A DNA stretch of 59,665 bases, counting the filler, from Jimgerdemannia flammicorona (taxonomy: Eukaryota), in assembly GCA_003990765.1 (NCBI GenBank). It is 3 parts of 3 records of this genome, joined end to end, with 100 filler letters (N's around TTAATTAATTAA, not from the genome) between each part and the next. Parts side by side here need not be neighbours in the genome. Positions count along the whole stretch, not along the records: positions 39,845 to 59,665 come from RBNJ01001845.1; 2 more parts are not named here. One strand, 5' to 3'. The position numbers were made by a program, and so were the translations under genes. How positions within the stretch are numbered: position 1 is the stretch's first letter; every line of letters starts with the position of its first letter. This document shows positions 16,109-59,665 of the stretch, piece after piece. The notes beneath the pieces are model-generated. The model had not been told where the DNA came from. It worked only from the letters and a program-made list of their open reading frames with translations, and searched no databases.

Positions 16109-16125
16109 CCAGCCAATGGGCACCA
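16109..16125 (-). promoter_or_regulatory. Primer-binding site, family A
   Basis: TGGTGCCCATTGGCTGG begins 3 nt after the LTR-terminal CA; cognate tRNA not identified. Confidence 0.7.
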
Positions 16126-16128
16126 AGT

Positions 16129-23314: not shown

Positions 23315-23604
23315 GTTTGTGTGTTTGGAAGTTGTGGTTTGTTGTTTGTTTTGGTTCTCTGATTCGACGCATCTCAGTGCTCAGTATATATGCATTTGGT
23401 CCTGATTGGTAAGGTTCCGTTTGTGTAGATCTTGTGTTCCGTGACTTCATATTGACTCAGCTTTGTGCGCTGTGACTTCGGTTTGACTCAGCTTCGTAAT
23501 CAAGCAGGTGATTTCCAGATTTGTTCAGAGGTCGCGTGTGATTTCAGTGGCTTTGTTCAGAGGGTGATGTGCAATTTCGGTGGCTTGGAGGTTGTGTACT
23601 TACA

Positions 23605-29592: not shown

Positions 29593-29641
<49 letters not shown>
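23605..29641 (+). mobile_element. LINE copy L3 (ORF1 to 25470, ORF2 25501-29483, poly(A) tail), inserted into hAT copy 1
   Basis: Colinear with L1; GRGVPQGDPLS, AFADD; AATAAA at 29570; poly(A) 29596-29641. Confidence 0.93.
25633..26015. mobile_element. hAT-type MITE
   Basis: TAGTGCTCCC...GGGAGTACTA TIRs; 8-bp TSD ggtatgag/gatatgag; homologous to 7657-8080. Confidence 0.92.
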
Positions 29642-29644
<3 letters not shown>

Positions 29645-31450: not shown

Positions 31451-31568
31451 GGCTGCAGACTCCAGGCCAAGTCCTTAGGGTTTTTTATCTTTTTATTATT
31501 TTTGAAAGGTATTAAATATTCCACAAGGCCAACCAACTTATTCGCAAACCCCCAGGACCTGCCAAATT

Positions 31569-34160: not shown

Positions 34161-34259
34161 GTATATTTGTGTGTTTGCATGTGCATATGTATACATGTGT
34201 GTGTATTGTATATGCATGTATATAGTATATTGTATTGTAGATGTGTCCAGTATATGAGT

Positions 34260-34546
34260 CATGTGGAGGATTTGGATTAGAGGATTCAGTTGAAGGATTT
34301 GGATGAGGATTTGGATTGAAGGATTTAAATTAGAGGATTTGAATTGGAGGATTTGAATTGGAGGATTCAGATTGAGTGATTCAGATTGAGTGATTCAGAT
34401 TAGAGTGGTTCAGATGGGTAATTCAGATAGAGCAATTTAGATGGGACAATTCAGATTAATCCAAGTTGATTCGGATGGCTTCAGATTTGAGATTTGGATC
34501 AAACCATCATGTGATGAATTGAATCTGGATTTGATTTGAATTGACT
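34260..34546. repeat. hAT subterminal repeats
   Basis: Tandem GATTCAGATTGA / GGATTTGAATT units next to the TIR; equivalent array at 57700-57955. Confidence 0.8.
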
Positions 34547-34649
34547 CATTCAGAGTACTATAAATTACTCAAGATAATATATAAATATACTACTCTGGAG
34601 AGTTGAAGATATCATATACAAACTACCTGAGTGAAGAATGTAGCCTACA

Positions 34650-36600: not shown

Positions 36601-39215
36601 CTTTTCTCTGGTAATATTCAGATTATACAACCTTTTGACAATACTTTCAATACAGTTTCTGGAGAAATGCTACTAGTATCATAACAACTGATGAGTATTC
36701 TAAGATGTATACTGAGCAGGGTGGCCTAGATACATTTGACTGGCAGTATGTGGGGTGGGGCTCTGGCTTGGGGGGAAGTATGAGGGGCCTGCTGGTAGGA
36801 GGATATAATAGGGGAGGAGGCAGTGCTGGAGGTCAGGAGACAGAGAGGACAAACTTTACAGATAAGGTGAAGAGAGGTCAGCAGAGAGCTGGGCTGGAGG
36901 GCTGGCTTAGGAGAGACAAGGAGACAATGAAGACTTCAGAGCAGTAGCCTTAAGGGGGAGTCTCTCTGGGGGGCTGGAGTAGTAGAGCTAGTGGTATAAG
37001 GACTAAGAAGATAACTGCTGATAGAAGCATGATGGGCAATCAGGAAAAAAATCTAGATGGGACTGCTGATGGTAGACTGAGCAGTGGAAAAGACACAAGG
37101 CCTAGCAATTTGGTGAATAGTATAACAGAACTAGTAGTGACACCATTACTCAAGAAGTCAATCTTGAAGTTTGTAGTCACCTTGTGCTTCTGGGGCTTAG
37201 CAGTGATGGTGAAAATGGTCCTGGGGCTGATTGCTAAGCAGGTGGCTGAAGTGGTATCTGTGAAGTTCCTGAAGGGTCTAGAAGGAGTGAACCATTGGAG
37301 GAGGCTCTGAAGGTGGAGTTGACAGTTAGAGAGGTATGTATTCTAATAATATGTTGCTTGAGGTGGGACCCCAGGGTGGTGTAATTGCTGGTGAAGGGGG
37401 TGCCCATAGTGACTGCTGAGGAGATGAGGAGGAGAGTTGTGAAAGTCATGGCTGAGTATAGTGAAGTGATTGATGTTGGGTTCTGGGTCTGGTAGGGGAC
37501 CTCTTTCAGGACTGGAGATGTTGATATTCAAATTCAGTTGGTAGGAAAGGAGGCTACCAGGAAGGCTAGAGACTGACCTTTAGTAATGATTTGGGGGGCT
37601 TTTTTATACAAAGTAACAAGGGTGAAGAGGAGCAAGGAGGAGGAAGAGGATCTGCTAGAGGCACTGGAAGAGCTGAGTAGTACTGTAGAGTGGAGGGCTA
37701 AGGCTTGAAAGGTGTATGTTGAGTCAATGCATTTGGAAGTGGTGAATGGAAAGAGAATTTGGATAGATAAGGAGTGGTGGGAAAGAGCCCAAAGATATAA
37801 GAGGCAGAGGGAGCTATTGGTGAAAATAGAGAGCAGGACAAAGATAGATATTGGTGACATTGAAATTGTAGAGAGAGCCAAGGAGAGCATCTGGGCTGGC
37901 AAGGATAGAGAGAATGCAGAGAAGGGGCCAGGAGGGGGAGAGAAGGTAAAGAGAGGTAACTCTTATGCAGATGGCACCTTTGAGGTCTAGGAGCTATCTC
38001 TGATCCCTATGTCTCTTATTAGAAGGGATCCAGCTTCAAGGAGCAGGGTGGCAGAGGATGTGCCTATGCAGAGAGCCCAGCAGATATACTTTGGAGTTTC
38101 TGAGGTAGTGAAGGGGGGGCAGGTAGTGGCAGTAGGTAAGGATGAATTGGTAGATATTCAAGAAGAGGAGTGAGATGAGGCTGCAAGTATAGGTGCTGAT
38201 GTCTTGATGCTGGATGGAGGGTGGCTAGCAACTTCTGGGGGGAAGGAGGTGAGAAATCTACTGTAGATGTGCAGAATAATAGACAACTTTGTAGCAGAGG
38301 AGTTGGGAGAGGTGGACCTACAAGTGATGAGTGATGAGCATTAGGCACATATCCTATATAGTGAGAGAGTAGTAGAAGTACTGAAGACAGAGATTCTTGT
38401 AATTTTCCTAGAGAAGGAAGGGTATGAGGTTGATAAGGAGAGGGAGGCTGGGCTGGCAGCTGCTGCTAGTGAGAGAGCTGCTTTCTGTTGGGCAGAGTAG
38501 TATGGGTTACAGCCTTGACAGGGGCCTGCCTGGAATATCATGAGGAATTCAAGAAGAAGGAGGATAGAGAGCTCACTGAACTTCTGGTTGGACTGGAGGC
38601 TAAGAGGACTGAAGAGGAGGTGGAAGCTACAGAATATGATCTGGATCTGACTCAAGAGGAGATAAATATAGAGCAGTAGAGGATGTACTTACTATTATAC
38701 ATTATTCCTTATAAATAGTACAATCAATATTTTCTCTTTAAATGTGAATGAGCTCTAGGGTTTGTTTTATCAACAGAATATTTTTGCTTGGCTGAAGGGA
38801 TTGGAGGCTGATCTCTTTCTTTTGTAGGATATCAGGTGTGAGGATAATTTAGATAAACTAGAATGGACAAAGAAATGGAGAGAAGAGGTAGTTTGGAAGG
38901 GCAAGGTTGGGATTCTGGTCAGGAAGGGCAGAGGGGAGATACAGGATGTGCAGAACTGAGGAGATAGGCTGGTTTGGGGTGAGTGGATATGCACTGGTCA
39001 GAAACCAGTTATGGTTAGATCCTGCTACTATCCTGTAGTGAGGGGTGAGCAGATAGAGTGGGTGAAGGGTCTTCAGGAGGAAGAGACTCTGGCAGGGGCT
39101 AGAATGGACATACTTGGTGGAGACTTTAATATAGTCAGAGATGTACTGTTGGATAGAACTGATGGCAGGCAAAGAGTGGAGGGAAAGAGTGGAGGTTTGG
39201 AGATGTGGGAGGAGG
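36601..39215 (+). mobile_element. LINE copy L5 (5' end, ORF1, endonuclease start), interrupted by a MITE
   Basis: Shared 5' terminus; ORF1 fragments; DILGGDFNIV within 39011-39262. Confidence 0.85.
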
Positions 39216-39573
39216 TAGTGCTTCCAATGAATCAAATCAAATCGAATTTGGCCCAAACTTGATTCAATTCAATTGAATCAAGGGTCCAATTTGATTCGAT
39301 TCAAATTGAATCAAAGGTCCAATTCGATTTGAAGTTCAATTTGAACCTTAATTTTCAAAATGTAATAGCTCGACGAAAACTCATCTAAATTTAATGTATT
39401 TTAGCTTGTTAGATTCACCATATTAATGTGATTCTAACAAGCTAAAGTACGTTAGATTTGGATGAGTTTACGCTGAGTTATTGCATTTTGAAAATTAGGG
39501 TTCGAATCAGACCCTCAATTTGATTCGACTTTTGATTTGATTCGAATTGATTTGAATTAAAAAATACCCAATC
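39216..39573. mobile_element. hAT-type MITE, one end missing
   Basis: Begins TAGTGCTTCC; homologous to the other MITEs; interrupted by the short poly(A)-family element. Confidence 0.85.
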
Positions 39574-39575
39574 AG

Positions 39576-39744
39576 CTCCTTTCTCCGCTACCTTACCAGT
39601 CACAAGGTTTGGTAGGCAACCTTCCGAGTCCCCTTTCCCCTATTATTACCCCCTCTACCTCGGGTTGGTTTGCTGTGCCTGCAGGGGCATGGTGGGAGGA
39701 GGGCAATGGTGATGAGTTGCCCCTTTATCGGTGTCGGATTGGTG
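39576..39744 (+). mobile_element. 5' fragment of the short poly(A)-tailed element
   Basis: Matches the starts at 57961 and 58468; cut by the gap. Confidence 0.7.
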
Positions 39745-39844
39745 NNNNNNNNNNNNNNNNNNNNNNNNNNNNNNNNNNNNNNNNNNNNTTAATTAATTAA
39801 NNNNNNNNNNNNNNNNNNNNNNNNNNNNNNNNNNNNNNNNNNNN
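39745..39844. other. Artificial contig linker
   Basis: Same N/TTAATTAATTAA/N spacer. Confidence 0.97.
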
Positions 39845-41156
39845 CCACCATGCCGCCCTGCCCTCCTTCCCCACGGACCTCTTGGGCCACCCTTTGATCC
39901 ACTCCGGGCTCCCCAGCCCAGTCACTTTCCCTCAATCCCCCTCCACTTCCTCCCTCGCCACCTTCCACCACACCTCCTCCCAATTTCTCCAACAGCTCCT
40001 TCTGAATACGCCTCCCCTGCATCTTTTCCCAAGTTCCTCGATCCATCCTGATCTTCTTCCCTTCTACAATTTCCACCACCGTCTTGGCCTCATACTCCTT
40101 CCAAGCCAATTGTCTCCTCTCGACAGCTCCCGTCAGATCCTCAAGAGCCTCCAGCAAATCCTCCTCTTCCTCCAGTGTCCCTTTCACCCGAGAGACCCTG
40201 CACTCAGCCTGTCCCCACTTCAGCGTCGCCGGCCAGTCCCTCGCCTTCCCCGTGTTCTCCCGACCAAACAAGCGTACTCTTACATCAACGTCTCCAGTCC
40301 TAAGTTCCGTACCCTCCCAGACTTTGAACCCGATATCGATGACATCCCCATACTCCTTTACCACCTCCACAATCAACTCCCTAGCCCTCTCCTGTGACAC
40401 CGTAGGAAGATCCAGCACCGTCAACTGCACCACTCTCGGGTTCCAGCGCATGCACCTCGCCATAGGAACTACCACTCCACCCACTACTACTCCTTTCTCC
40501 ATAGCCTCCAGCATCGACACCTCTTCTTCAAACCCAACCTCAATCCCTTCCTTCCCCTTCATGAACTTGACCATAGCTGCCCCCTTCACCTCCTGTGCCA
40601 CTAGCCCCAGGATCATCCTCGCAGTCACTGCCAAGCCTCGGAAACACAATGTGACCGTGAATTCTGACCTCGACTTTTTGAGTAACGGCGCCGACACCAT
40701 GCCTGTCACTCCATCAGCCAGGTCCCTGGGCCTTGTGCCCTCCTTTTGACCAGATCTGCCAACCACCGTCACATCTGGATTTTTTTCCAGATTCCCCGTC
40801 ACAGCCCCATCAGTAGTCACATCTCCAACCCCTACTCCCCCTCCCCCCATGGCGACTGAGGCTCCCATGGGGGATCCTCCCTGCCCTCCTTCTGAACCCG
40901 GTATCGCCTTCCCCAGTCCCAACCAACCATCCAGCCCTGCGGCCATCTTCCCCATCCTGACCTTGTCGGCAAAGGTCGCCCTCCCCCCACCTCTCTGCCT
41001 CAGTCCACCTCTCCCTCCACCTCCAGCGCCACCGCCCACCACAGACAGCCCTGGTATCCCCAAACCATCTCCTCGTTTCCTCCCAACCTGCTGCCAGTCG
41101 AAGGCCCGGCTGCTCCCCTGGCCGACCTGCCCACCAGTTTGCTCGATGCTTGCCAT
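39845..41156 (-). CDS. LINE ORF1, open up to the gap
   Basis: More than 430 codons without a stop; homologous to the decayed ORF1 copies. Confidence 0.85.
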
Positions 41157-41236
41157 GTTGATAGTAGCTTTTCACCAAAAACTTCACAGAAAGTGTTGTC
41201 CAAATCTTGTGTCACCCGAATGTTACCGGTGAAAGG
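39845..41236 (-). mobile_element. LINE copy L6 (CpG-retaining, probably young), inserted into a family A LTR
   Basis: Shared 5' terminus; uninterrupted ORF1; abundant CpG. Confidence 0.88.
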
Positions 41237-42463
41237 TGTTATTAGTTGTGCTGCTGGCATTATTTAGTGTCACATCAAAATACCAGTGCTGGAATAATTT
41301 CGTATCACCTCAGAATGCCGGTGCTGGCATTATCCAGTGCTACATGAGAATACCGGTGCTGGCATTATCTAGTGTAACAAAGAACTTAGAGCAGAAAGTT
41401 CAGGACCATGAGAGCTTCATCCTCATCATCATCATCACTGAAGGAGATGAGATCTGCAAATTCGTTGCACAGGCCGTGCATCTCGGTACTTCGCATGCTT
41501 CAGGTATGTCATGCGGGATGACATTATTGCCGATGACGTCATCACGTTTGGCTGTAGCGGGAAAATCAGAAACAAGATCTGGAGCTCTCCAGTCTATAAG
41601 GTTCTCTTCCACAAAATAGGAAACAAATGTGGGGTCTTGGGGAGATCTAATCTAGATGCTTGGGCCTTGGAATACTGAGATCAATCCTTGCAGGAATTGA
41701 TCTGGGTTGTCCTGAAGGATAGGGTGCCAGAAGTCTTCTACTTCTTCGCTATTGAGGGTGATAGTAGACTGGGCTTCTGTAGCCACCCTGGCTTCTAGTG
41801 TATTGATACGGTGGGATGATAGGTCTCTGAAATCCGAGACTCTAATATACTCCAAGTTGGGGATCAACTATGGTGCATGCCTGAAGATCTGATGGATCTT
41901 CCTAGCTGTCCTTGTTTCGCATATATCCATGGGAGTGTCATCTTGTAGCTCTTGGGTACTGGCCTGTGGGAACTCCCGGTAGAGGAGGTTTCCTATTTTG
42001 TACTCCTACCATATTTGGAGGCATTCGGTAGCAATGGTGATCCTTGTTTCCATTTCATGGTGGTAGAGGATAAAGTGATAAGGGTCTGCAGTACCCAGGT
42101 TGATGCTAGGAGTCCTTCTTGAGCAGGTTCTCATGGCTCTTCTGATGTCTTGGAACATCCTTTTCTCAACTGAGATACCTTGGTAATTCCTTGACCTTGA
42201 GGTTTGGCAGGCAGCAGGCATTTTGTTTGTGGTAAGTCTTTGAGCTATTTTGGGATTGGTGGTTCTTGTTAGTTGCTGCTACTGTGGTTTCTTGATCCTT
42301 CTTTTATATTCTTCAGGATGCTCATACTGTGGTCACAATGACTCACAGTTGGTCATCATTGCTCATCTCATATGCCATATGATCTTCTTGTGCTCTGATC
42401 TGGTGGCTTATAAGGAAAGGCTGTCTCCTGTGCTGATGTCATCATTCTGGGGTCACTGTTACA
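41237..42463 (-). mobile_element. Family A LTR (partial), with LTR ORF remnant 41386-42221
   Basis: Starts TGTAACAGTGACCCC on the minus strand; homologous to 9294-10826. Confidence 0.88.
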
Positions 42464-44080
42464 ATATTTATAAACTGAGATTTCTGTTTGAAGAATATGA
42501 AATAGAGTAGTTGCTTTATATAGTTACTATAGAATGGCTTACTGAGCTCACTCTTATCATCTTTCAGATAAATGAAATTATTTCAGACTTATAAATATTA
42601 TATCACTTATTAGCAAATATGAGTAAGATCTTTTAGAGCTATTGATCTTAACTCATCTATATTGGAGAAGATTTGATCAAACTTTTTGTCAAAGACTTTA
42701 TAAATATGGAAACAGAAGATCATAATTTGATAGTGTAACTATTTTTTTTAATAAAAATGAAAATGGTTGAGTTTGTAATCTGCTAAATAAATATATAAAT
42801 AAAATATAAATAAAATACTCACTGTAATATAAATTGAACTATTGCTATCTTTGGCCTTTAAGCTCATGTCTTTTAAAATTTTAATAATAATGTCTGTTTT
42901 TAGATCACTATTATATTTTGGAAAAAGATCTTTAAGAAAAAGATGTTGAAGAAGTATATCTACTGTAAGCTTTCAGATTACTTTATTAATTTTATATTTC
43001 TAACAGATATTACTAATATCTATAGATCTGCCAAATTATGATATAAAAATTCAATTTATATTTATAAATAAGTTATAATATACAAACTATAATTTATAAA
43101 CTCATTTGTAAAAATAACTTATCTATTTCTTTTTCTGTCTTACTTAACTATCTATCCTATATATCTGATCAAATGTACTTCCACATCATCATTCTGAAGT
43201 ATCTCATCATCTGAAAGTATCTTATTATCTAAAAGTATCTCACTATACAGAAACATCTCATTGTCCTAAATTATAAGCTTGGATTATTTATCATCTCTAC
43301 CTTATTTACTACTGCTGTCTTATTTACCAACTCTGCCTTATTCTTATTCAATTTATTCATTCTCATTCTGTTCACCTTAATCTTTAACCATTTGGCTGCT
43401 CTCTCATTGAAGTTAGAAGCTATATACTTATTAGTATTGATCTTATCTAGATATAATATAGTCTGTATCTTAGTTTTATATACCTTTGTAGTCTGGTGCA
43501 GTTTGTCTGTAGTCTGCTTCTTGGTTTTATATATCTTTGTAGTCTGCAGCCTATCTATGATCTGCTGTTTCTTAGTTTTACAGAACTGATATAATTTATT
43601 TATGGCTTAGTATATATTATTCATAACTTAGTACTTATTATTTATACTAAAGTATATTTTGTTCATCTTAGAAAGCAATCTGTTATCTTTAGATACAAAG
43701 AGATTATTGTAAGGAGAGTAAGAAAGACAAGATTCTTCCAGGTAAAGATCTTTTTTTATATCTGCAATATTTATAATAGACATATATATATATTGTTAGA
43801 AAGTCTAATAAGTGAACATAAAGCTTACTTACTTATATTTAGTTAATATGATAATATAATAAGTTTAGTTAATATATATAATAAAGTACAAATATATTAA
43901 ATAAGTATATATAAGTAAGTATACTAAGTAAGTATATTAAATAAGAATAAAAGTATAAAGTCAATCAGATAAATAATTTTATTTTAGGTGAATGTGTTTT
44001 ATAATTATAAACTTTCTATTAGAATAATTCATATTGTCCTTCAAATTCTTTCTTATTTTAAACCTAATATCAATATAAAG

Positions 44081-44779
44081 TATTTTTGCTCACATTGCAA
44101 TCTAAAGTACAAATCTGTCTTAGAATTAACTTAATATATCTATAAAATACATAATATACTTATATAATATCAGAATAATAAGTTTATTCTTGAATTTTTA
44201 GTTTATCAAGATTTTAGTAACTTTAATATTATACTATTATTATTTATGAATCAACTGATAGTCAGATTATCAATAGTGAGAAAGTACTTATATAGTATAA
44301 TAAATTTTTCTAAACTTAGATAGACATCTATAACTAATGCAAATAATCCTTTATATCTTTAGAAGAATGATAGAGAAATTTGGCTCATAAATCTATTGTT
44401 TTGAAGTAGAAATATATCTCAAAAAGTTATAGATAAACATCTTAATAAATTTGTAGATAGAAGAATTTTAATGGCAAATGAGCCCCTCTAGTTCACAAAC
44501 TCAAGAGAGATGATAAAAATTTTAGATATAGTAGTCAAAAATAGAGTAGTATATAATTAAACAGTTAATATTCCTGTTAAATTAATAAATATTGAGTAAT
44601 TCTCTTTTTCAAATTAGTTCTTCAATTGCAAAGTTTTTAATATTACTTATATCCAAAACTTAGATTGATAAATATGAACTATTCTATTGAGATTTACTTA
44701 CTATTTTATATAAACTAATGTCAAATATTTTATTTAAGAATAATATGAAATTTAAAGTAGAGAAATACTATACTTAGAT
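44081..44779 (+). pseudogene. Very decayed gene start with C2H2 finger, resembling the N-terminus of a Plavaka-type transposase
   Basis: YFCSHCNLKYKSVLELT*YIYKIH (C-x2-C-x12-[H>Y]-x4-H), then NP...EIWLINLLF...IDKHL...FTNSREMIKILD. Family assignment is by recollection only. Confidence 0.4.
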
Positions 44780-45118
44780 TAGTGCTCTGAATGGATAGAG
44801 TTAATTCAGATGAGATTTGATTCAGATTCATTATGTGATGAATTTGAATCAACTCAGATTGGTCTCATGATCTGATCCAGATTGATCCATCCAGATTGAA
44901 ATCTTTGGTGATATCATCCTTTCTTTTGTTCATTTTTGCTCTTGTTTTTTTTTTCTGTTGCACTTTGGTGACATCACTCTTTCTTTTGTTCTCTCTCTTC
45001 TTTTGTTCTTTCTTTGTTCTTTTTCTTTGTTCTTTTTTCTTTCCTGCTACATCACAAGCAAAAAAAACAATAGTTCTTAATTATATATTAGTCCAGTCTA
45101 TTCATTTTTTACTCTGCA

Positions 45119-47193
45119 ATGATCATCAAAAGAGGGAGTATTTGAGGTAGAAACACACTCTCTACTGATAATATTAGATTCTTTCTCATATAGATAGCAC
45201 ACAAGCTGCTCATCAAGAACTAAAGGGGTGACAGTAGTGGTAATGGTGGTAGCAATGATAATGGCAGTGGCAATGGTGGAGATGAGGGAGAATTCTGACA
45301 ATAACTCATAGCAGTCCTTCAGACCTCAGAATTCACAGACCTCACAGCTATGTATATAGCAGCTATTTTGGAATAGCTAATAGTAGATATAGGTTGCTCA
45401 CTCTATCACTACTTGTTTACTTATATTTATTTAAATTTCCCCAGTATGACCCAATTCACCTCATGCTTTTCTTAGGGTCTACAGCTCTATGGTAAGATCT
45501 GCTGATTTTATTTGTAATATCTGATCAAGATGAAGAAAGGCTGACAGATGTTGTGGGATATGCCTTTAGTGGCTGAGCTATTGAGTTAATGTATCACATG
45601 GCAGAGGTCTCAAAAAGAACAGAAGTAAGCCTTCATGAGCAATCTTATATAACTTGTGTAACTTGTACAACTTTTTGGCATACAACTTATTGACATATAA
45701 CTTACTCACTCACTCACTCACACTCTTTTTCTAAAATACCCATCTCTATATTTTATTTAACTTCATTTTTTATATGGTCTTCTCCTAAAAAAACACCCAC
45801 ACCTGTATGTAACCCATTTACATACAACCCATCTACATGCAATCCATCTGCACACAACCCACCTATATATAACTCATCTATATGTAATCTATCTATATGT
45901 AATCCATCTACACACAACCCATCCACATACTTATCTTGGCCTCTCAGATCAGGGCTCAGTTTCATTAGAAAGGAGAGTTCAAAGTTATCCAAGTTCAACC
46001 ACATTCAGCATCTGATCAAATAGAGAAATTTGAGGGCAAGATGTTCAGCATGAGTAGTATCAGCATTGTCATCAAGACTTAGGGGTCTACATTCGAATTG
46101 GAGCCAATCATTCTTGACCAAGAGGTCTATTGGCCAGCAAGAGTAACTAACAATGAAGAGAACTATATCATTATTAATAAATATAGAGAGGTGGTTGCAA
46201 TGGTGGTAAGGAATCTCTACAGTGATGAGCTTCACCACCACATCAATGAGGTTTGTGAGGATTGCATTAAATACCAGATGGCAGGAAAGAGGGGGTGAAA
46301 AAAGCAAGGAGGGGGGGGTTGGATGGGAATTAGGTATACTGCAATACTGGTAAAGGGTGGGTTCTAGAGATCCAAAATCTCCTGTACTTATCTCCCTTTT
46401 TTTTACTCCTCTCTAGATAATCACACTCTTCACTGATATACTCTTTTTGATATAATTTCAGAAATGCACAAGATTCTGTACCCCTACTGGAACTTTAGAA
46501 GTACTGTTAAAGAGCAAACTACACATGAGTATATCACAGCCTGTATGGTGATAGTGGCTATGATCTGAGATTCTTTGAGCAGATTGGTAGAGTGTACAGC
46601 AGGCCAGCTTGGTGGTGATCTCAGCATAGCTGTATGTATATTCTTGATGCAATTTAGCATACTGTATGAAGTGAGAAGCTCCACTTTTTTTAGGTGCTAC
46701 AGTCCAGGGGGTTTCTGTGGCCCAGGGGGTTTCTGTCCTTCTATATGCAAAAAGGACTGACTAGATATTGTCTATCTGATAGGTTTCTAAGCTGAGGCTC
46801 CCAGGGCTGGACTAAGAGCAGATATCCACCAGTACAGCCTGGCAGTATGAAGTCCTGGGCCAAGGGTTCACCCAACCATATACTTGTTTCACATCAGGAT
46901 ATATTAGGTACAATATTTCTCTACCCATATATACAGACAACAATGTCACCCCAGTAATATTCTATATCTCAGAAAGGAAGGGCCCAATCTGGGAAGATAG
47001 TGGTGGAGTCTGGTATGACCTCATCTATGGTTTTGGGGTTCCATTTATAGCCAACATGGCCATCCTATTCCAACAACATAACTACTATGGCACCATTACC
47101 TTTGAGGAGAGCTCAGATATAATAGTCATCACACTCACAATAGATGACAGGCTCATCAAGGCCTGGGACCAGCAGATAGAGCAGTTTTTGTGA
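45119..47193 (+). pseudogene. Multi-exon putative 2OG-Fe(II) dioxygenase (TET/JBP-like) cargo gene, hAT copy 2
   Basis: In-frame exon-like segments from ATG 45119; 45948-~46294 (includes ORF 46098-46298); ~46462-46670; last exon to TGA 47193. Motif reads Y-T-D...Y-GT, i.e. His codons changed by C>T relative to copy 1. Confidence 0.55.
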
Positions 47194-48190
47194 GAGTTAG
47201 GCAATCTTTCATAAGGGTTAGGCAATCTTTCATAAGGGTTAGGTAATCTTTTATAAGAGTTCAGCAGTCATTTTGTACAGATTGAGCTAGCAGCTGGACA
47301 TCTCTTCTGTAGTACTAGTTTAGTCATTATGCTGGGCCCTACTAGCCCCTTAGTCCTGCTCTTATAGTGCTACTGGTATAGCACTGCAGCACAGGGCCAG
47401 AGTGCTTGTGGAACTCAAACTGGTGATAGAGCCCAAATCTGTAGTGGACTTTGACTGCCAGAAGTACCCTCCAACTGCCAGAAATGCTCTCTGACTATCA
47501 GAAGCACCCTCCAACTGCCAGAAGCACCCTCTGATCACCAGAAGCACCCTCTGATCCAGACTCAGACTCCTTGGTGACTTGGAGCTACTTCTATACTACT
47601 GGCAGAGGGCAACAAATTTTGTGCACTCTCTCTACCAACCCCACTAATCTCTGATCCAGATACAGGCTACTGGGGGGAGCCCTATGCTACTAGTGCCACA
47701 AATTTTGCATGCTTTCTCTGCCTGTCCCATATAACCTGAATTCTTACAGCTTGGAACTGCCCCTTGCTGTTGGCAGAGGGCTGCAAATTTTGCATGCTCT
47801 CTCTGCTGACCCCATACCCACCAACCCTGCCAACCAACCCTGCCTACTGATCCAGGTACTGACAGCTTGAGACTGTCCCTCACTGCTGGCAGAGAGCTGC
47901 AAATTTTGTATACTCCCTCTATCTATCCCCCCCCTCTCTGCCAACTCCCCCATCCTAGACACTTACAGCTTGGGGCTGCTCCTTGCTATCAGTGAAGGGC
48001 TGCAAATTTTGCATACTCTCTCTACTGACCCCATGCCCACCAATCTACCCACCAACCCACCCACTGACCCAGGTACTGATAGCTTGGGGCTGCTCTTTGC
48101 TGCTGGCAGAGGGCTGCAAATTTTGCACACTCTCTTTACTGCCACCAACTCTACTGACCACTGCCCTACTTGGGCTGCAAACTCTAGGCC
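47185..48190. repeat. Internal repeat block of hAT copy 2
   Basis: Same minisatellites and ~6 TGCAAATTTTGCA-centred palindromic units as 30385-31450. Confidence 0.8.
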
Positions 48191-51100
48191 AAGTCCTCAG
48201 GTTTTTTTTTCTTTTATTTTTGAAAAATATTAAATATTCCACAAGGCCAACCAACTTATCCATGAACCCCCAGGACCTACTGAATTTTAGTGGCCTGAGC
48301 TCTACTAAGACTTCAGACATATATATGTCCAGATTGTCTCAGTATTCAGCATACATCTCTTTGGGGCAATGAGGTCTACTCCATCTGAGAACATCCACTC
48401 AATGGGAGTGCTGGAGGCAGGAATTACCAGGTAGTCCCAAGCCATACTATACAGACTGGGGAAGTCCATTTGATATAGCTACATGCTCTAGTAGATAGAG
48501 TGATAGTTAGATTGGTAGATTAAATTGGCCCAATGCCTGCCTGATAACCCACCTTCCACTAGTTGAGCACCTCTGTGCCCTCCAGCAGGATCACATGGTT
48601 GCTGGTGAGATAAATGGTAAGTTTGTCTATTGACAGCAGCTCTTCTACTGACAGCTCCCTCTTTCTCTTTCTACTGAAGTAAATGTGAGACAGGAGGGAT
48701 CCCTCAGCATATTCATCTAGACTTCAGCTGGAATCTTGCAGCAGCACATAGTTTTTCCAGTATACTTCAATTATAGCCTGCTTGGTTCTCTTAATGAAGT
48801 ACTGCTCCCAGCCCTGATCTTTATAGTATTGTAGCTTTAAGCATAGGTCCAGCACTAGTTGGAGAAAAGAATGTGTGTTTTTGTAGGGGTTTCTCTATTT
48901 TGAAAGAGGCAATAGCCACATGCCAACATACCTATACTAATTGAGTATATAGTGATATCTGTTTTGGAGTAGTATTTTCTGAGCTTGCTTAAAGTAACCT
49001 CCACAGCATCTCTCTGATCTGGACTTAACTATAAATCACTGCAACCCTCCAGCCTGTCCTCAAGCTTGTCCTCTAGCCAGTCAATCAGAAGGTTATATAC
49101 TGGTATTGCAGAGCTTATTGTCAAGGTTGTTTGTTTGACTATATTCTTTATACAATTATCAAAACACTGGCAGTTATATGTGGTGAGGTATTGCATTATG
49201 CAGAGGTAGACAAAATGAGTATAGAGTCAGAGTAATTACTACTTACTTCCAAAACTCTGACAATATTCCTAAGTACATCCCACTTGCTTTCACCTAGAGC
49301 CTCACCCTGTATTTCCTTATTGGCAGCTACTGTTGAATCTATTGGCTTTTTTTGTTTTTTTTTTTTAAAAAAAAAAAAATCTTCTATCATCTGAAATAAG
49401 TTACTTCAGCCAACTAAAGAAAAAAGAATACATACTACAGCAAACTCCAGTACATGCTGGATAATTATAAATGTTAAGTTCTAATGTATACAGACATCTA
49501 ATATAAGCTCTTTCAGGGCTAAACTGATTGCCCTACACTGCAATAAATTTGTCTTATCATTGTGGGGACAATTGGACTGATACAACTAGTTTGCATAGCT
49601 TGGAAATTATACTCAGAGCCCCTCCTCTCTTGGATGTTTTGTCTATATACATAAGATAGTCCTGAACAGTGAGGTTCAGTACATGGGTCTGGCATTATAT
49701 ATGATAGCTTTCTGTACTGAAGGTACATTTTTTTGTTTAAGGCTGGCTACTAAAACTTGGAAAAATGTTGAGTTGTTTGTAGCATTGTCTGTTATAATGG
49801 TCAAAATCTGTACTTGAAATATTCAGTTGCCAAATATATACAAAAATAAATAACCAATAAAATCTGTTTTATTTTAGGACCTTTCTCAAAATGCTGACCT
49901 AATGGCAAGCCCCCCTTTTTTATCTTGGTTATGATCCCAAGCTCCCAGATACAACTAACAAAAGCATCTGCAATGTTGTCTCCAGAATGAGGGCCAGCAA
50001 GTTTGACAAAGTCAAGGGTGAGAGATTTAAGCTATCAATTGAGGTCAATCTAATGACTGATAATGCCCAGAAAAGAAATTGTATTGAGGGATATCTATGT
50101 GTCAATTGTAAATGAAATTTTGTCTGCTGAATTCTATTTATTAAATGTAAGGTTAAATTGGTGAGCTCTTTATAAAAATATATATATAATTCAGCTTGCA
50201 AAGGTCATAGTGCTGCCCTTATTTTATCTGAAATATCTGATAGAGATTGTCATACTCCTTCCTATAGGCCTTTAGGATATCTTTGTAAATAGTATCAGTA
50301 CTTGGTAAATATAAATAATACTTGAGGAGGTCAAAGATGCTATGCACTTGATCACTCTCAATGGTTGTGAATAGTTGGTCTGTGTACACAATCTAGCAAA
50401 TGAGCCAATTTTAAAATTCTGCCAAAGAGTATAGCTAAATATTTTTGATTAAATAGAGTTATTGGTACAGAAATGGTCAGGCAATTGGATAAACATATCC
50501 ACCACAGCTTGGATGTTTATTTTATTTGTCTCTGTGTTCTTTTTGATTTTGTCAGAGTACTTGTCTTGTAAGCACACAACCTCCAAGCCACTGAAATTGC
50601 ATGTCATCCTCAAAACCAATTTGGAAACCATATGCAAGACTACAAAACAAGTTACTGAAGAGATCATCTGGTTATACAAAATATGCCAGCAAACACAAGA
50701 ACCTACTGCCAAGATACAAGAATACCAGAAGAAGTACTACAACCATAGGACTGACTCTGAACCTCTATAACTAGTTTGGTGTACTATACTATTACAAAAG
50801 GAAACCGAAAGTACTCAACTCAAACTGAGACAAGAAGGACCCTATCTCATCCATCAAAGATTCATGAACTGCACTTATCAAACTCAAGATCAAGATACAC
50901 CATGACTATATAAGATCTCATTACTTAGCAGAAGCAAAACACATTTGAACAACTCTGTTCACTCTATCTGTGTCACCTCCATTGGAGAGTGACAGATGCT
51001 TCATCTGAACTCAAGAAAGCCAACATCATCAAAACCAATCTCAAGCCATCCATGTGACAGATATTACTACTAGAAATTGTCTCAGATTATAGAAAATATC

Positions 51101-52099
51101 ATTTCTGAGAGGTTCAAACCACCAGCTGCAACATTGGGAGCCCTCACCCTAGACAAGAATGGCCAGTCCTCGCAAATGTGCCAGCAGGCTAAAAAAAAAA
51201 GAGAACCAAGACCTGTTATCCTTATATAACCATCATCACCAAGAACAGTCATAATTTTGCAAGAGACAGAAGTGACAATACCTTTGAAACTAATAACATC
51301 AGAAGTCAGAAAACTGCTCAGACTTTACCAGTGATGATGTCATCAATAGTGATATCATCAAAGACTAACCAGACAGTATCTAAATCTATAAATAGTTTAG
51401 CAATTATAGTATAGTTAGATTAGTCTCGTACAACATGACTGTGAACTGACTCAGCAGTCAGATGATCTCTTGATATATCAGATCACACTTATACTACATG
51501 ACTGCATTCTGACTCAGCAAGGCACTTAGTGCTACATCTATATTTAGTATAGTTCAGATAGCCCCTCACTAGTATAAATACCCCCTCCCCCAGACCTCAG
51601 AATCTCAGACTTAAACAGACTTGAACAGACTTGAACAGACTACAATATCCCTTTACACAACTACTCCTAGTATAGCAATATCATGAATAGCAAATAAATC
51701 TATTTAATAACCCACAAACCACTCTTAAGTAAATCCGCTCCCTATTAGGTCCCACTCCTAACCTCATTATGAAATTTCCTAATTGGGTATTATCTGCAGT
51801 GATACACCAATTCAACTAAGCTGGCCTTAGTTTCTTGAACTTCCTGAAATACAGAAATTCCTGAATATCTAGAACTAGTCCGAAAAAGGACTTTGGTTGA
51901 GACATCAACCCAATCTTGAAATCAATAAGCATAGAGGACATACTCCATATGAAATTGATCTTGACCATAAGAAAACAGTCTTCCAGAATATCCAGAACTT
52001 TCAGAAAACCCTTCCAGAACTACATAACAGTTACTCTAAAAAGTAACCCTCTTACAACTTGGTAGCAGCAGTTTACAATTCAATTCCACTTCAAGATGC

Positions 52100-54015
52100 T
52101 TCCTCACTCAGCTACAAAACCCCTCTGAGAATTTCTATAAGTTGGTATAGAGCCCAACCTCTGAACTGGAATTTATCCTGAACTATCTGACAATCTGGAG
52201 AGAATTGAACCTGATGTATAAGGACAATTTGACCTCTACACCTACAACAAGTGGGACAAACTTCATTCAAAGAAAGAAGTACTCTGATTAAATCAACAAA
52301 TAGGTGAAACCCTATTCACCAAACTCCTTGCCCTACACCCAGCAAGTCAAGATGAAGTAGGTCTTATAGAAGCCTTCTTTACTCTTCTTAACAAGAGTTT
52401 TATTAGCTCTATAAATCCAAGCAACCTAGGACAACCAGCAGCAGTCTTTCTAGCATTAGTCCCTCACAAAGCCCAAGTCTCTGTAGCCAAGTGACTCAAC
52501 TCTACCGACTTTCACTGTACCAGGACCAAGACTGCATTATACTACCAATTCCAAAATAGCAAGGCCTATCATATTCTTAAAGAAGAAGCAAGAGAAACTC
52601 TTCATCAACTACCTGACCCCAAACCAGAAGTAGGCCCAGCTACAGCCCTACCTGAACCTAAAACCAATACTGAACCAGAATTTGACTTTGAATTAAGTCC
52701 ATCTGAAATCAGATATACAACTGATTCTGTCTACTTTGATGCTGAGCAAACCCAACTACATGGGGACCAAACTGAAGAGGAGGAGGAGTATCTCAGTAAA
52801 TTCGATCCCAGATACACCACTGAAAGAGACACCCCTCCATCAGGACAAAATACACTGATACAGCAACAGATAGCTATCTATCAAGCCCTTACTCCAGACC
52901 CACAACTACTACTCCAGCAACTTACACAGACCCAAAGAACACCCTCATACTCTGCACCAGTACCTCAAGTAGTACCAGTAATACTACTACCAGCAGTCCA
53001 ACCACATCCAGTAAACGATATGACAAACTAACAGATTCTAGACCTTACATCCCAGATAGCGATAATGGCAGCAACCATTACTGCCCTAGCTGAACAGACC
53101 TGACCTACCAAAAATCTGAGCCTACCTACCTTCAATGGTACTGCACAAGAAGTTTAAAGCTTTATTAGTATAGTTGACACCAACTTCGAAGCCAATCAAT
53201 GGACAAATGAGTGAGTTGCTGACTGCCTTCTGACAAACAATCAAGACCACACTCTGGAACAACTCTTTGCTACTACTACAGCCTATGTCTGCTAAGTTGT
53301 TATATTCTTCCAAGGACCTGCCAAAGAATGGTGGTGAACCCTTCCTGAAAAACTCCTTACATGGAACACCCGACCTGCAGTAGTTGTACAGAATGTAGCA
53401 AATAATACCCCAGGATATGGAGCCCATCCTGCAGCCCCTAGACTCAAACAACTTATGATTGCTCAATACCACAGCAAAACCATGATTACTGAATCTCGAG
53501 TAAAACTCCATAATCTCAAATTTGATGTACATGGTAAAGAAGAATTCAAAATCTTCTGTACAAAACTTGAGTCACTCCTGAACACTGTTGACCTAGGATA
53601 TATTACCAATGATAAAGCATGAAATGGTACAAGAGCAGACCATTTATTTGATGCCCTACCTGAATGGCTTACTAGAAAAATCTGAGAACAAGACCACCCA
53701 GTTGGTTGCAATCACCAACAATGGTACCTGGCAAGAATCAAGACTATGGTCAAGTGAATCCTAACAGCTGGACCAATTATGCCTTGAAGACAATTCAATA
53801 ACAAGAAAAAGACTTGGACTAAGAAGAAAAAACCCAAGCATGAAGCATCCCAAGCTCCCTCCACATCCACCTCATAGATACTCAGAAATCATGAATCCAC
53901 CCAGCTGAGTACCTTCAAGAAACTCACTGAAGGAGAAAGGAATGAACTTCAAAGAAGTGGAGCATGCTTCTATTGCTGAAAGACAGGACACATGGCCAGT
54001 GCCTGCCCTAACTGA
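52100..54015 (+). pseudogene. Gag with zinc knuckle (family B)
   Basis: GACFYC*KTGHMASACP near 53960-54010; homologous to 19924-21421. Confidence 0.85.
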
Positions 54016-54084
54016 AAACCCCGAACAGCAACATAAGCAGCTATTACCACTCTACACCACCTCAATAACCTGATCACCAGAACA

Positions 54085-54495
54085 CTAGACTTTGTCAAGT
54101 TAAGGCAAACTGCCAAGGCCCCAACCAAAGGAAGTCAAAAGGCAGCTAGATATGATCTGTATGTAGCCGAAGAAGCTACAGTTTCCAACTGAGAAGTCAA
54201 GCAAGTCTATACAGGAATCAGTATCCAAATCCCTGAAGGATATGTTAGAAGAATATGTTATTGCAGCAGACTAGCATTGAAAGAACTCTCAGTAGAAGGA
54301 GGAGTCATTGACAAAGATTATATAGACAAGATTATTGTCCTCATCCGAAACTACAGTTGGACACCCTTCAAGATCCCCATTGGTTTCTGCATTGCCCAGA
54401 TCCTATTCAAAAAAATTGAGTCAACCCTGACAGTCAAGGAAGTCTCTGAACTACTGTCCACCATCCAAGGATCCAAAGGATTTGGCTTATCAAAC
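54085..54495 (+). pseudogene. dUTPase domain (family B), upstream of the protease
   Basis: AKAPTKGSQKAARYDL, TGISIQIPEGY, GGVIDKDY, IAQIL, QGSKGFG. Confidence 0.9.
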
Positions 54496-54709
54496 AAGGC
54501 CCCAGCCCAACCAACCATAAACAAAGAAAAACAATTCTACAAGAAAATTGAAGATGGATATGTACCTAGTGGCTGATGCCCCCATAGTATTGGAATGTAC
54601 TCTTCCCAAATAATTGATAATTGCTTCTCTTGTATCAATGAACTGGCTCAAAGAAGAACTAATAGAAGGAAAGCTCCTATAACTAAAATCACCACCATTG
54701 GATCAGACA

Positions 54710-55070
54710 AACTGCTTACACTTAAAGCTTTTGTCAATCAAGCATCTGTCAAGATTATGATAGACAGTGGTACCTCAGGCAACTTTATCAATGAAGAAAC
54801 AGCCAACAGACTCAAGGTCTTCACCTCTCTGGTATAACAAACTCAAGCAGTTGCCACAGCTGATGGAACCTCCCATATTATTAGCAAGAAAGTCCACAAT
54901 CTGCTCTTCCAAATTGGTGACTACTGAGTACATGTTACCCTCCAGATCATACCACTCCCTGATAATGAAATCATCCTTGGGACTCTATGGTTGAAACAAG
55001 AGAACCCTATGATTGATTGGATAAACCATTCTCTGACCATCAAGAAAGGACACCATAACTTCAAACTACA
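54710..55070 (+). pseudogene. Aspartic protease (family B)
   Basis: MIDSGTSGNFI, TADG, IILGTLWLKQENPMIDW. Confidence 0.88.
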
Positions 55071-57960
55071 AGATGAAAAGGACCCACTCAGCTCTAGTGA
55101 CCCTAGACCAAAGATTACCCACATCAACAAGCTATAACTCAAGAAATTGGCCAAGAAATGCTCTCTTTTTACCATCTCCATCCACCTATCCAAAGAAGAA
55201 CCCAAGAACTCTGAAGAAGACTTTTCCAAAGTTAACAGCCATGTCAGACCACTACTTCAGAAATTCTGAGACATATTTTCAAAGAAGCTTCTGAAAGGCC
55301 TATCTCCTAAACGAGCAGTAGACCATGCCATCAAGACCAATCTCCAGAATACTACTGATTTAGTTCAGGAATATGATTTCTTGAACAACTGAAATCTAAA
55401 TACTCCGACACCTATCAGTACATACTATATATTACCCTCTTGAACATTATAATTATCTTGAACAAAATCAAGAACTCAGCAAGTCAAGACAAAAGAATAC
55501 TAATCCTCTGAAAAAACAGCAAAACTGAAAGCAAGCCTATTCTCCCCATACCACTAGTGGGAAACAAGGCATAGATATTTAAGAAGATTCCTTAGAGGAA
55601 ATTCTCCAGCAGTGAATGACATCAGAATCACTTCCAGTATATAGTATTGAACATATGACCCTTTAATATATGAACCCAACATGTTAGGCAACTGTACTAT
55701 GAACATGCCACTTTCTGAGAAAAATGGACTTCACTGGACTTTTGACCTCCCAAATGGTGTAACAACACTAGAACAAAATTAGAAGGCCCCAATGAGGATG
55801 TCGAAAGCTAAGAAGGAGAGAGTTGTAAGTGCACAACCTCCAAGCCACTGAAATCACATGTCATCCTTAGAACCAATTTGGAAACCACATGTGAGACTAT
55901 AAAATAAGTTACTGAAGAGATCATCTGGTTATACAAAATACATCAGCAAATATGAGAATCTACTGCTAAGATACAAGAATACTAGAAGAAGTACTACAAC
56001 CATAGGACTGACTCTGAACCTCTATAACTAGTTTAGTATACTATACTATTATAAAAGGAAACTGAAAGTACCCAACTCAAACTGAGACAAGAAGGACCCT
56101 ATCTCATCCATCAAAGGTTCATGAACTGCACTTATCAAACTCAAGACCAAGATACACTATGACTATACAAGACCTCATTACTTAGCAGAAGCAAAATGTA
56201 TTTGAATAACTCTGTTCACTCTATCTGTATCACCTCCATTGGAGAGTGATGGACACTTCATCTGAACTCAAGAAAGCCAACATCATTGAAACCAATCTCA
56301 AGCCATCCATGTGACAGATATTACTACTAGAAATTGTCTCGGATTATAGAAAATATTATTTCTGAGAGGTTCAAACCCCCAGCTGTGATATTGAGAGCCC
56401 TTGCCCTAGGCAAGAATGGCCAGTTCTCGCAAATGTGCCAGCAGGCCAAAAAAAAAAGAGAACCAAGACCTGTTATTCTTGTACAATCACTATTACTAAG
56501 AACAGTCATAATTTTGCAAGAGATAGAAGTGATGACACCTTTGAAACTAATGATATCAGAAGTTAGAAAACTGCTCAGACTTTGCCAGTGATGATGTCAT
56601 CAATAGTGATATCATCAAAGACTAACCAGACAGTATCTAAATCTATAAATAGTTTAGTAATTATAGTATAGTTAGATTAGTCTTTTATAATATAACTGTA
56701 AACTGACTCAGCAGTCAGACAATCTCTTGACATATCAGATCATACTTGTACTATGTGACTGCATTCTGACTCAGCAAGGCACTTAGTGCTACATCCATAT
56801 TTAGTATAGTCCAGATAGCCCCTCACTAGTATAAATATCCCCTCCCCCAGACCTCAGAATCTCAGACTTGAACAGACTTGAATACATAAGAACATTCTTG
56901 AACACTTCCTCACAATATCCCTTCACACAACTACTCCTAGTATAGCAATATCATGAATAGCAAATAAACCTATTTAATAACCCACAAACCACTCTTAAGT
57001 AAATCTACTCCCCATTAGGTCTCACTCCTAACCCCATCACGAAATTTTCTAATTGGGTATTATCTGTAGCAATACGTTGATTCAACTAAGCTGGCCTTAG
57101 TTTCTTGAACTTCTTGAAATATGGAAACTCCTGAACATCCAGAACTAGTCCAAAAAAGGACTTTGATTGAGATGTCAACCCAATCTTGAAATCAATAAGT
57201 GTAGAGGACATACTCCATATGAAATTGATCTTGATCATAAGAAAACAGTCTTTCAGAATATCCAGAACTTCCAGAAAACCCTTCCAGAACTATGTAATGA
57301 TTACTCTAAAAAGTAATCTTCTTATATGTCTTTTATGTATCAATATATGTTCAAAGTTATACTACTAAGTATTTTGAACTTCTGACTAGTACAGTTTATG
57401 GAGTAGATGAAATAGTATTATGTGTATATCAAACAAAAGTATTAGTTATATTAATAGGTGCATTTTAATTTTTTATCTGTAATAATTACAAACAATATCA
57501 TCTTCTATCTTAGTACAATATTGCCAGATTTTGGAGTGAGGATTGTGTAAAAGATATGGAACTATCAGAAATTTTTAACTTGAAGTATCATCAGTACTAT
57601 GAACTATTGAAGACTGATCTGTCAACATGTATATTTGTATGTTTGCATATATATGTATATATATATTATATATAGATACATCCAGCATATGAGTTATGTG
57701 GAGAATTTGAATTGAAGGATTCAGTTGAAGGATTTGGATGAGGATTTGAATTAGAGGATTCAAATTGGAGAATTCAAATTAGAGGATTCAAATTAGAGGA
57801 TTCAGATTAAGTGGTTCAGATTGAGTGATTCAGATTGAGTGATTCAGATTGAGTAATTCAGATTGAGTAATTCAGATTGAGTAATTCAGATTAAATGGTT
57901 CAGATAGAGTAGTTCAGATGGGGTAATTCAGATAAGTAATTCAGATGAGATGATTTACAG

Positions 57961-58467
57961 CCCCTTTCTCTGCTATCTTACTAGTTACAATGGTTTGGTA
58001 GGCAACCTTCCGAGTCTACTTGCTACAATTATTACCCCCTCTATCTCAGATTGGTTTGCTATACCTATTGTAGGGTAGTGGGAGGGAGGCAATGGTGATG
58101 AGTTGCCCCTTTATTAGTATCAGATCAGTGTCTTCTCCACTTTTTCATGGTTTCTGGTGCCTTCAGCTATATCTAGAGTGTATCTGTTTTGATATAGTGC
58201 CTTCTTCCTTTTGTTATTGCCAATAAGGTACTGTCTTAGTATGTTATGAACTATATAGGGAGTTGGTCAACCTTAGGTATCAAGTGTTCAGTATAGGTTA
58301 CCTGTAGGTCCTCAGTGCCTGTAGTGGGCCCTCTGGCTTTGGTGAGCTTCTCAGTACTGGCATAGGTGACTGCTTTTCAGATATTGTTGAAATGGAAGGA
58401 GAGATGGCTATCACAGATAAGAGAAAGAACAATAACAGTGAACCAGTAAGATACCAGGCTGAGTATA
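57961..58467 (+). mobile_element. 5' ~0.5 kb of the short poly(A)-tailed element
   Basis: Direct repeat of 58468-~58975. Confidence 0.7.
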
Positions 58468-59630
58468 CCCTTTCTTCGCTACCTTACCAGTCACAATAGT
58501 TTGGTAGGCAACCTTCCAAGTCTACTTTCCACAATTATTACCCCCTTTATCTTGGATTGGTTTGCTGTACCTATTGCAGAGTAGTGGGAGAGAGACAATA
58601 GTAATGAGTTGCCTCTTTATCAGTATCAGATTGGTGTCTTCTCTACTTTTTTATGGTTTCTGGTACCTTTACTATATCTAGAGTGTATCTATTTTGGTGC
58701 AGTGCCTTTTTCTTTTTGCCATTACCAACAAGATGCTGTCTTGGTATGTCTTGGGCTACATAGAGAGTTGGCTGATCTTGGGTGTCAAGTGCTCAGTATA
58801 GATTATCTGTAGGTCCTCAATGCTTATGGTGGGGCCCTCTGGCTTTAGTGAGCTTCTTGGTGAGTGTGGTTCTGGCATAGGTGACTGCTTTTCAGGTATT
58901 GTCAGGATGGGAGGAGAGATAGCTATTACAGATAGGAGGAAGGGCAATAACAATGAATCAGTAGGATGCCAGACTAAAGGCAGTCATCAAGGCTGGAACA
59001 AGTACTGCTTTGGTGGGGCCTTTTGATTGGAATAGCATGGTTAGGTGGTAGATGTCACTCTCGGCTTCTTTTGGCAATTTGGCAGATTGGGTCCCAGTTA
59101 TCAGAGGGGGTTAAGGGGCCTGAGACTACCCATTTCAGACATCTTGGCTGTATTTAACTAGAACTAGGAGCTGATATAGCAAAGTGATTGAGGCCTACAG
59201 GCTTGAGTAGTGGGGTATTGGAGGTCTTCTCTTGCCTTATGTGTAAGTCCTTTACTCACCTTGACTGGGAGATCCAGGTCCTACCCACTATGTTATGTTT
59301 TGATGAGAGTTTTTCTTTATCTGTCATTCTCTTTTGGATAGCAGGAGCTGTTCTATTTAGCTCAGGCATGGCCTTGTATATACATTGGGTTCTTGGGCAT
59401 ATGCTTTTGGTCATTGGCATATGACTGGGTTTCCTCTAGTAGTAGAGAGAGCATAGTACACAGAATAAGATATGGGCCAATATAGACTCTGCTGTGCCTA
59501 GCATGGTCGAGCTGCTGGACAATAGCTAGCCTAGGTTAATAGGGGGGCAGTGCTTGGTCGGTGGTGGGGGAGGGTTTTGGTCTATATAGTCTAGGTTCTC
59601 TTCTAATAAAAATCTACAGGATATTGAGTC

Positions 59631-59665
<35 letters not shown>
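58468..59665 (+). mobile_element. ~1.2-kb poly(A)-tailed non-autonomous retroposon (SINE-like)
   Basis: Same 5' start in three copies; AATAAA at 59605; poly(A) from 59635; no RT-like coding. Confidence 0.65.

Follow-up and report, generated by a model that had tools for sequence, protein, structure and literature searches.

Does a hAT transposon in the fungus Jimgerdemannia flammicorona carry its own enzyme against DNA methylation? The question is raised by a stretch of 59,665 nucleotides from assembly GCA_003990765.1, referred to here as the window, in which one hAT element of about 6.4 kb is present as two decayed copies with a spliced gene beside the transposase. The original prediction regarded this gene as a TET/JBP-like 2-oxoglutarate (2OG)-Fe(II) dioxygenase that may protect the element from silencing. 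We consider it probable that the element is a hAT outside the hAT7 group, with a gene for a divergent TET/JBP Fe(II) dioxygenase, and that this enzyme most likely oxidized 5-methylcytosine (5mC) against silencing. Among the transposon-borne enzymes described by Kojima 2025 (Biology 14:1741, PMC12730594), of which part of the text and of Table S1 is drawn on here, it appears closest to the PE type, with H-x-D rather than H-x-E as its metal-binding motif.

The hAT element and its two copies

The element is a hAT, as evidenced by the hAT dimerization domain PF05699, which is encoded on the minus strand at 48305–48478 in copy B (E = 1.1e-7) and at 31587–31718 in copy A (E = 3.5e-7). The Pfam cut-off of 21.4 bits is exceeded in the two copies, at 32.0 and 30.4 bits. 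In copy B, the domain forms the C-terminal part of a minus-strand transposase remnant preserved in short open reading frames (ORFs) at 48305–50565, while the corresponding remnant of copy A spans 31587–33729, with its longest ORF (138 aa) at 33097–33513; no transposase ORF in either copy is longer than this.

The window is an artificial join of three contigs (1–19823, 19924–39744, and 39845–59665), since two identical linkers, each consisting of 44 N, TTAATTAATTAA, and 44 N, occupy 19824–19923 and 39745–39844. The two copies lie on different contigs, and thus their apparent distance and relative orientation are not real. Self-comparison bears out the earlier claim of two copies, as it aligns them in three collinear blocks at 77–83% identity: 46460–47636 with 29641–30844, 47692–50570 with 31014–33865, and 57327–57894 with 33857–34459 (copy B and copy A, respectively). 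Copy B comprises 44780–50565 and 57327–57957, the two parts being separated by a nested long terminal repeat (LTR) retrotransposon; it breaks off at about 57957, where another repeat starts, so that the last ~100 bp and the right terminal inverted repeat (TIR) are gone. Copy A (29641–34560) is 5′-truncated and begins directly after a 45-nt poly(A) tract (29596–29640) that ends a long interspersed nuclear element (LINE)-like element with RVT_1 and endonuclease domains. Complete ends are therefore found together on neither of the two copies, in agreement with the earlier caveat, and no hAT target duplication, be it the 8 bp usual for the superfamily or the 7 bp that defines hAT7, can be read for this reason.

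The left TIR of copy B, TAGTGCTCTGAATG (44780–44793, plus strand), has its counterpart in inverse orientation at the right end of copy A, where the right TIR reads TAGTACTCTGAATG on the minus strand (34547–34560). The matching termini proposed earlier are thus found at both places, the inverse being a match in 13 of 14 bases only, with a single G/A difference (12 of the first 13 agree). A 14-mer of this kind is by itself within chance, as 39 of 100 shuffles gave at least two matches in a search allowing two mismatches; the match carries weight because it sits at both repeat boundaries and because a shared subterminal block adjoins the TIR at the left end of copy B and at the right end of copy A. 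The TIRs of hAT elements are short and of the (T/C)A(A/G)NG type, a pattern fitted by the TAGTG with which both termini begin (44780 in copy B, 34560 on the minus strand in copy A), although each end comes from a different copy. The termini of the element are TAGTGCTCTGAATG and CATTCAGAGYACTA.

The subterminal regions are repetitive on both sides. The left one (44794–44900 in copy B) contains short CAGAT-type repeats, a motif common to the right-end repeats, and 14-nt tandem repeats of family D1 occupy the right ends of both copies, at 57721–57933 within the right part of copy B (57327–57957) and at 34286–34456, preceding the right TIR, in copy A. An array of ~100-nt repeats (repeat families D3 and D8) separates the accessory gene from the transposase 3′ terminus in both copies, at 47730–48157 in copy B and at 30852–31433 in copy A. 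The overall layout is a left TIR, the accessory gene in forward orientation, the transposase in reverse orientation, and a right TIR. In copy B, the gene is preceded by the left TIR, and the earlier view that it sits within the element, flanked by the left terminus and the transposase, is upheld. The flanks of the two copies are unrelated, yet the order of gene, spacer repeats, and transposase is common to both.

The accessory gene and its relatives

The accessory gene is a plus-strand, spliced gene of at least three exons, convergent with the transposase and pseudogenized in both copies, much as had been proposed. In copy B, its upstream exon (46083–46356) was located by tblastn with residues 86–167 of the homologue P0004, its probable end being given by a GT at 46357 and by where the homologous contig L001 has its intron. 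The middle exon (46461–46670) is bounded by an AG at 46459–46460 and a GT at 46671, and the last exon (46783–47193) closes with a TGA at 47191–47193. Copy A retains the middle exon (29642–29851, plus strand; profile E = 0.0056), which starts right after the LINE-like poly(A), and the last exon (29983–30392, plus strand). A profile built solely from the homologues matches the window at 46083–46295 (profile positions 64–123, E = 1e-8), at 46437–46565 (positions 141–177, a weak E = 0.15), and at 46816–47190 (positions 219–337, E = 9.9e-42). Both tblastn and this profile thus place the pieces in collinear order, and copy A gives the corresponding pieces. The first 63 positions of the profile have no match anywhere upstream of 46083, for which reason the gene start at 45119 in the original prediction, along with the stretch 45119–46083, is unsupported, and homology sustains the gene only from 46083 onward.

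The state of the reading frame agrees with the earlier description of two pseudogenes. Copy B has one in-frame stop in each of its three exons, that of the last exon at 46813–46815, and a Tyr at both iron-binding His positions: H-x-D reads Y-T-D and the distal His reads Tyr, with the GG turn intact. In copy A, the last exon is interrupted by three stops and, near 30303, by a 1-nt frameshift; H-I-D and the distal His are intact, and the GG reads RR. The 1-nt indel noted earlier between the copies just after the distal His is present. The stop at 46813–46815 is common to both copies, which may mean that the gene was defective in their common ancestor already; alternatively, a favored CpA site may have undergone the same change twice.

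The gene represents a real family with homologues. An exhaustive profile search with the last exon against 1.84 billion cluster representatives returned only five clusters, all from metagenome or run assemblies and none informatively named. P0001 (136 aa) is 69% identical to the window (E = 2e-61); P0004 (374 aa) is apparently full length and the weakest of the five (E = 1.8e-7); the others are P0002, P0003 (28 members), and P0005, and a further search added P0021. A word-index search with the 125-aa window ORF found no match among longer proteins, and the same kind of search with the profile of alignment A5 gave P0004 as the sole relative among the matches listed. The members of P0003 vary by R-to-C/H, D-to-N, P-to-L/S, and H-to-Y changes, a transition-type decay, and the gene is therefore probably multicopy and mutating in the organism behind that cluster as well.

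Related loci were sought among viral and genome contigs, with no result, and among metagenome contigs, which gave L001 and L002 only. Both contigs hold the gene with short GT-AG introns, as P0021 also carries it; it is intact in L001 and has one in-frame stop in L002. The two are 99% identical over 2714 bp and differ by 23 transitions, with 13 of the 19 context-scored C/T differences at CpG. In the flanks of L001, tblastx against the window found nothing significant. Downstream of the gene and on the same strand, L001 (2099–3260 and 3500–3620) and also L002 contain a second multi-exon gene, which has no Pfam match, along with a block of GATTTGA repeats. A likeness between this block and the right end of the hAT is seen when the 3′ repeats of L001 are aligned with that end in copy A (score 40, whereas shuffles reach 29 at most), although the sequence is of low complexity.

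Comparison with TET/JBP dioxygenases

Conservation of the metal-binding triad, on which the original prediction had staked its reading, extends across the family: in the H-x-D...H motif, the first His is found in 20 of 21 rows, the Asp in 17 of 21 (the remaining four have Asn), and the distal His in 17 of 19. All exceptions are transition-type changes such as accumulate in decaying copies. The motif is H-[VTI]-D throughout, and copy A keeps all three triad residues. The distance from the Asp to the distal His is 50 residues in the window gene and also in the intact homologue P0004, so that the spacing described earlier holds in the few relatives of the gene.

In the feature space of a protein language model, the nearest named neighbors of the family are Tet-like. 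With P0004 as the query in the ESM Atlas, all 30 nearest named clusters belong to this group, six to PF20515 (2OG-FeII_Oxy_6, Tet-like) and 24 to PF12851 (Tet_JBP). The six PF20515 clusters are from Basidiomycota, and the top three, with scores of 0.96, 0.93, and 0.92, share 209, 182, and 174 of 256 features, the first of them carrying PF20515 on only 15% of its members. Both families share the H-x-D...H facial triad with the present one, yet no hidden Markov model match was obtained at E up to 10. The degraded window ORF was uninformative in the same tool, returning unnamed bacterial clusters at scores of 0.84–0.86.

The original prediction knew of no hAT-borne case, a statement that is outdated because Kojima 2025 describes TET-carrying hAT7 elements. 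According to the parts of that paper used here, TET/JBP genes occur on seven DNA-transposon lineages in rusts, hAT included, and 20 TET-carrying hAT7 families are present in six Puccinia species, with 7-bp target duplications and PU-type enzymes, PU being one of three types of transposon-borne TET/JBP enzyme alongside AG and PE (PMC12730594). The PE type is reported there from Agaricus, Laccaria, and Pezizomycetes, with predicted structures that resemble CMD1, NgTET, and CcTET and with H-x-E in place of H-x-D as its stated hallmark (PMC12730594). A full-text literature search found no other papers on hAT-borne TET/JBP genes. The Puccinia hAT7 elements and the window element are alike in being hATs with a TET/JBP-like gene beside the transposase, for which the same role is proposed. 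They differ in their termini, which begin with CA[AG]C in 10 of the 10 hAT7 records of Table S1 that were compared and with TAGTGC in the window element, and in their enzymes, since the hAT7 enzymes are of the PU type, with G-x-M-W-x-I-G-W-R-K and GGPFVFP motifs, whereas the window gene is PE-like.

The likeness to the PE type was judged by eye against the domains of Table S1 of Kojima 2025 (PMC12730594). In this comparison, the PE type and the present family have in common, at matching spacing, E-[LI]-V-L-V-V, [LV]-S-A-G, R-[ML]-D-G, the core GG...Y-G...A-A-N-T...H-G-T, and G-L...T..R-L, the T..R-L block occurring only in the group formed by the window, P0001, and P0002. Over the ungapped 33-residue core from GG to H-G-T, 17 of 33 residues of P0001 and 13 of 33 of copy A are identical to a PE-type protein, as counted by eye. 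Both the PE type and the present family are too divergent for ordinary profile matches. In contrast to the H-x-E of the PE type, the present family has H-x-D, and the PE hallmark is absent in this respect; likewise, the S-A-G-S-R of the PE type is replaced by S-A-G-Y-T.

The element can also be set beside other transposons with genes of this kind. An older association, reportedly made by Iyer and colleagues in 2014 and cited by Kojima 2025, is that of fungal TET/JBP genes with Kyakuja/Dileera/Zisupton (KDZ) and Plavaka transposons. Like the window element, these are DNA transposons with their own TET/JBP gene in a repeat-methylating fungus, whereas the transposase superfamily and the enzyme type are different. 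What remains new here is a different hAT lineage combined with a rare PE-like, H-x-D enzyme type that is missed by standard profiles.

Several results weigh against the assignment to TET/JBP. The comparison with Tet_JBP and Tet-like Pfam profiles that had been proposed as a check gave no match: P0001–P0005 and the window ORFs of the gene hit no Pfam family at E up to 10, and among 14 members of alignment A5 no Tet family was found, the only matches at E < 1 being four unrelated families in one member each. PHROG and NCBIfam gave no relevant match for the gene family, and neither P0004 nor the family profile matched any PDB sequence at E up to 10. The AlphaFold models of full-length P0004 and of its residues 90–374 (alignments of 14 and 16 rows) reached a predicted local distance difference test (pLDDT) score of 41 and 37, respectively, and are unusable; Foldseek on the first, poor model returned nothing at E ≤ 0.001. 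The Atlas recognition value of 2142 is lower than the mark of 2300 set by the tool, below which a high score is weak evidence, and one third of shuffled proteins also reach ten of ten same-family matches with this tool. The PE-type comparison was made by eye rather than by an alignment tool, and the PE type itself owes its link to TET/JBP, in the parts of PMC12730594 used here, to no more than HHpred e-values of 1.4 and 19 along with predicted-structure similarity. Across the family, no conserved Arg is found about 15 residues after the distal His. Another Arg, that of the G-W/S-R motif, reportedly takes part in 2OG binding in the TET2 structure. At this place, after a conserved Gly (GWR in the PU type and AGSR in the PE type), all four covering rows (P0004, P0021, L001, and copy B) have Thr. 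On the side of the hAT, the gene and a terminus occur together in copy B alone, and no hAT transposase is found on L001 and L002.

Taken together, the TET/JBP-like reading stands as far as the Atlas neighbors and the PE-type blocks carry it, whereas profile, PDB, and structure searches lend it no match; the gene product is probably a very divergent dioxygenase of the TET/JBP superfamily. The architecture of the element, its hAT identity, the homologues of the gene, the conserved triad, and the decay are shown directly, whereas we infer that the protein folds as a double-stranded beta-helix and belongs to TET/JBP, and likewise which substrate it used and that it acted against silencing. The same evidence bears on the possibility that the accessory gene, although carried by the hAT, has another or unknown function, in which H-x-D...H is coincidental or part of a different metal-binding fold. 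This explanation would account for the lack of any profile or PDB sequence match, the two unusable structure predictions, the lack of conservation at the usual 2OG-binding Arg positions, and an Atlas recognition value under the reliability mark. It is unlikely, given that the 30 named Atlas clusters nearest to the family are Tet-like without exception, that several blocks at matching spacing and 17 of 33 core residues are shared by eye with the PE type as listed in Table S1, and that the triad is conserved in the homologues, with losses of the transition type only; the weak Foldseek rows include several 2OG oxygenases and cupins, none of them significant, and carry no weight. Rather unlikely is a true TET/JBP relative that did not demethylate but made another base modification or depended on a different co-substrate, in the manner of CMD1 with vitamin C. 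The Thr that replaces the Arg of G-W/S-R in all four covering rows would suit such an enzyme, as would two points made in the parts of PMC12730594 consulted, namely that CMD1 is one of the solved structures nearest to the PU and PE types and that other activities are possible, while the absence of a glycosyltransferase or other modifying gene from the element argues against it.

It is quite improbable, in turn, that the gene is not integral to the hAT but belongs to a neighboring or nested element, is a host gene duplicated along with it, or owes its two copies to segmental duplication. There are two copies only, one with the left end and none with both termini, the metagenome homologues have no adjacent hAT transposase, and TET genes are said in the portions of PMC12730594 used here to move frequently between transposon superfamilies without recognizable junctions, all of which would fit a gene that is a stranger to the element. 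Against this stand the unrelated flanks of the two copies, the match between the left terminus and subterminal block of one copy and the right end of the other, and the spacer repeats common to both copies between gene and transposase; moreover, none of the six inverted-repeat pairs found in 44700–48400 brackets the gene alone. Returning to the preferred reading of a hAT with its own TET/JBP-like gene, a bolder form of it is tentatively raised, although we regard it as doubtful: the gene might represent a fourth transposon-borne TET/JBP type, a sister of PE with H-x-D and without the Arg of G-W/S-R, captured independently by a hAT unrelated to hAT7. If true, this fourth type would be very rare in public data, with five clusters among the 1.84 billion representatives, and the absent Arg could mean a co-substrate or reaction other than canonical 2OG-dependent 5mC oxidation.

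Decay, surrounding repeats, and significance

Over 4037 aligned positions, 609 transitions and 63 transversions separate the two copies, with 88 CA/TG doublets between them that mark former CpG sites. CpG is absent from copy B (observed/expected ratio 0.00) and nearly so from copy A (0.09) and from the window as a whole (0.11). C/T differences extend beyond former CpG sites, as C before A or C varies at 19–41% of sites and before T at 2–9%, which suggests a non-CpG component of hypermutation in the hAT copies.

In the mechanism proposed here, the transposase would act on the TIRs and subterminal repeats to mobilize the element, while the iron dioxygenase would most likely have oxidized 5mC on the DNA of the element itself or nearby, thereby countering methylation-based silencing and C-to-T hypermutation. 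The element would appear to have lost this contest in the window, where copy B is without CpG and the gene is broken in both copies. We infer this anti-methylation function from the relatives of the family and from the published proposal; escape from methylation-based silencing is also the role proposed for TET-carrying elements in the parts of PMC12730594 used here, where it is likewise deduced.

The surroundings of the copies consist of further repeats. The retrotransposon that splits copy B (50566–57324, plus strand) is not part of the hAT; its LTRs (50566–52054 and 55823–57324) are 90% identical, it encodes dUTPase and aspartic-protease domains, and its 5-bp target duplication, TGTCT, is evident from a comparison with copy A, which has no such insertion. 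This LTR family has a third, partial copy at 19924–22278. A dUTPase domain stands beside protease, reverse transcriptase, and RNase H in LTR retrotransposons at 12531–14366 (minus strand) and 54193–54834 (plus strand), one of which is that nested in copy B. The LINE-like element is present in two copies, at 1–~6000 (minus strand) and 23600–29640 (plus strand, with the poly(A) at 29596–29640), and encodes a reverse transcriptase and an endonuclease/exonuclease/phosphatase domain; the GC skew is extreme over several kb of these copies, at about −0.5 and +0.45, and tracks the orientation of the element. No canonical TET/JBP gene is present elsewhere in the window among the 141 ORFs scanned.

Transposon-borne demethylase-like enzymes are a striking counter-defense against genome methylation. 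The idea that a hAT might evade methylation by means of a TET gene was already published in December 2025, to judge from the portions of PMC12730594 used here, and the part of the present finding of most lasting interest is the rare enzyme family that standard profiles do not detect. If true, the reading proposed here would mean an independent capture, by a different hAT lineage, of a barely sampled enzyme type, and it would strengthen the view that TET-like genes have been recruited repeatedly by unrelated DNA transposons.

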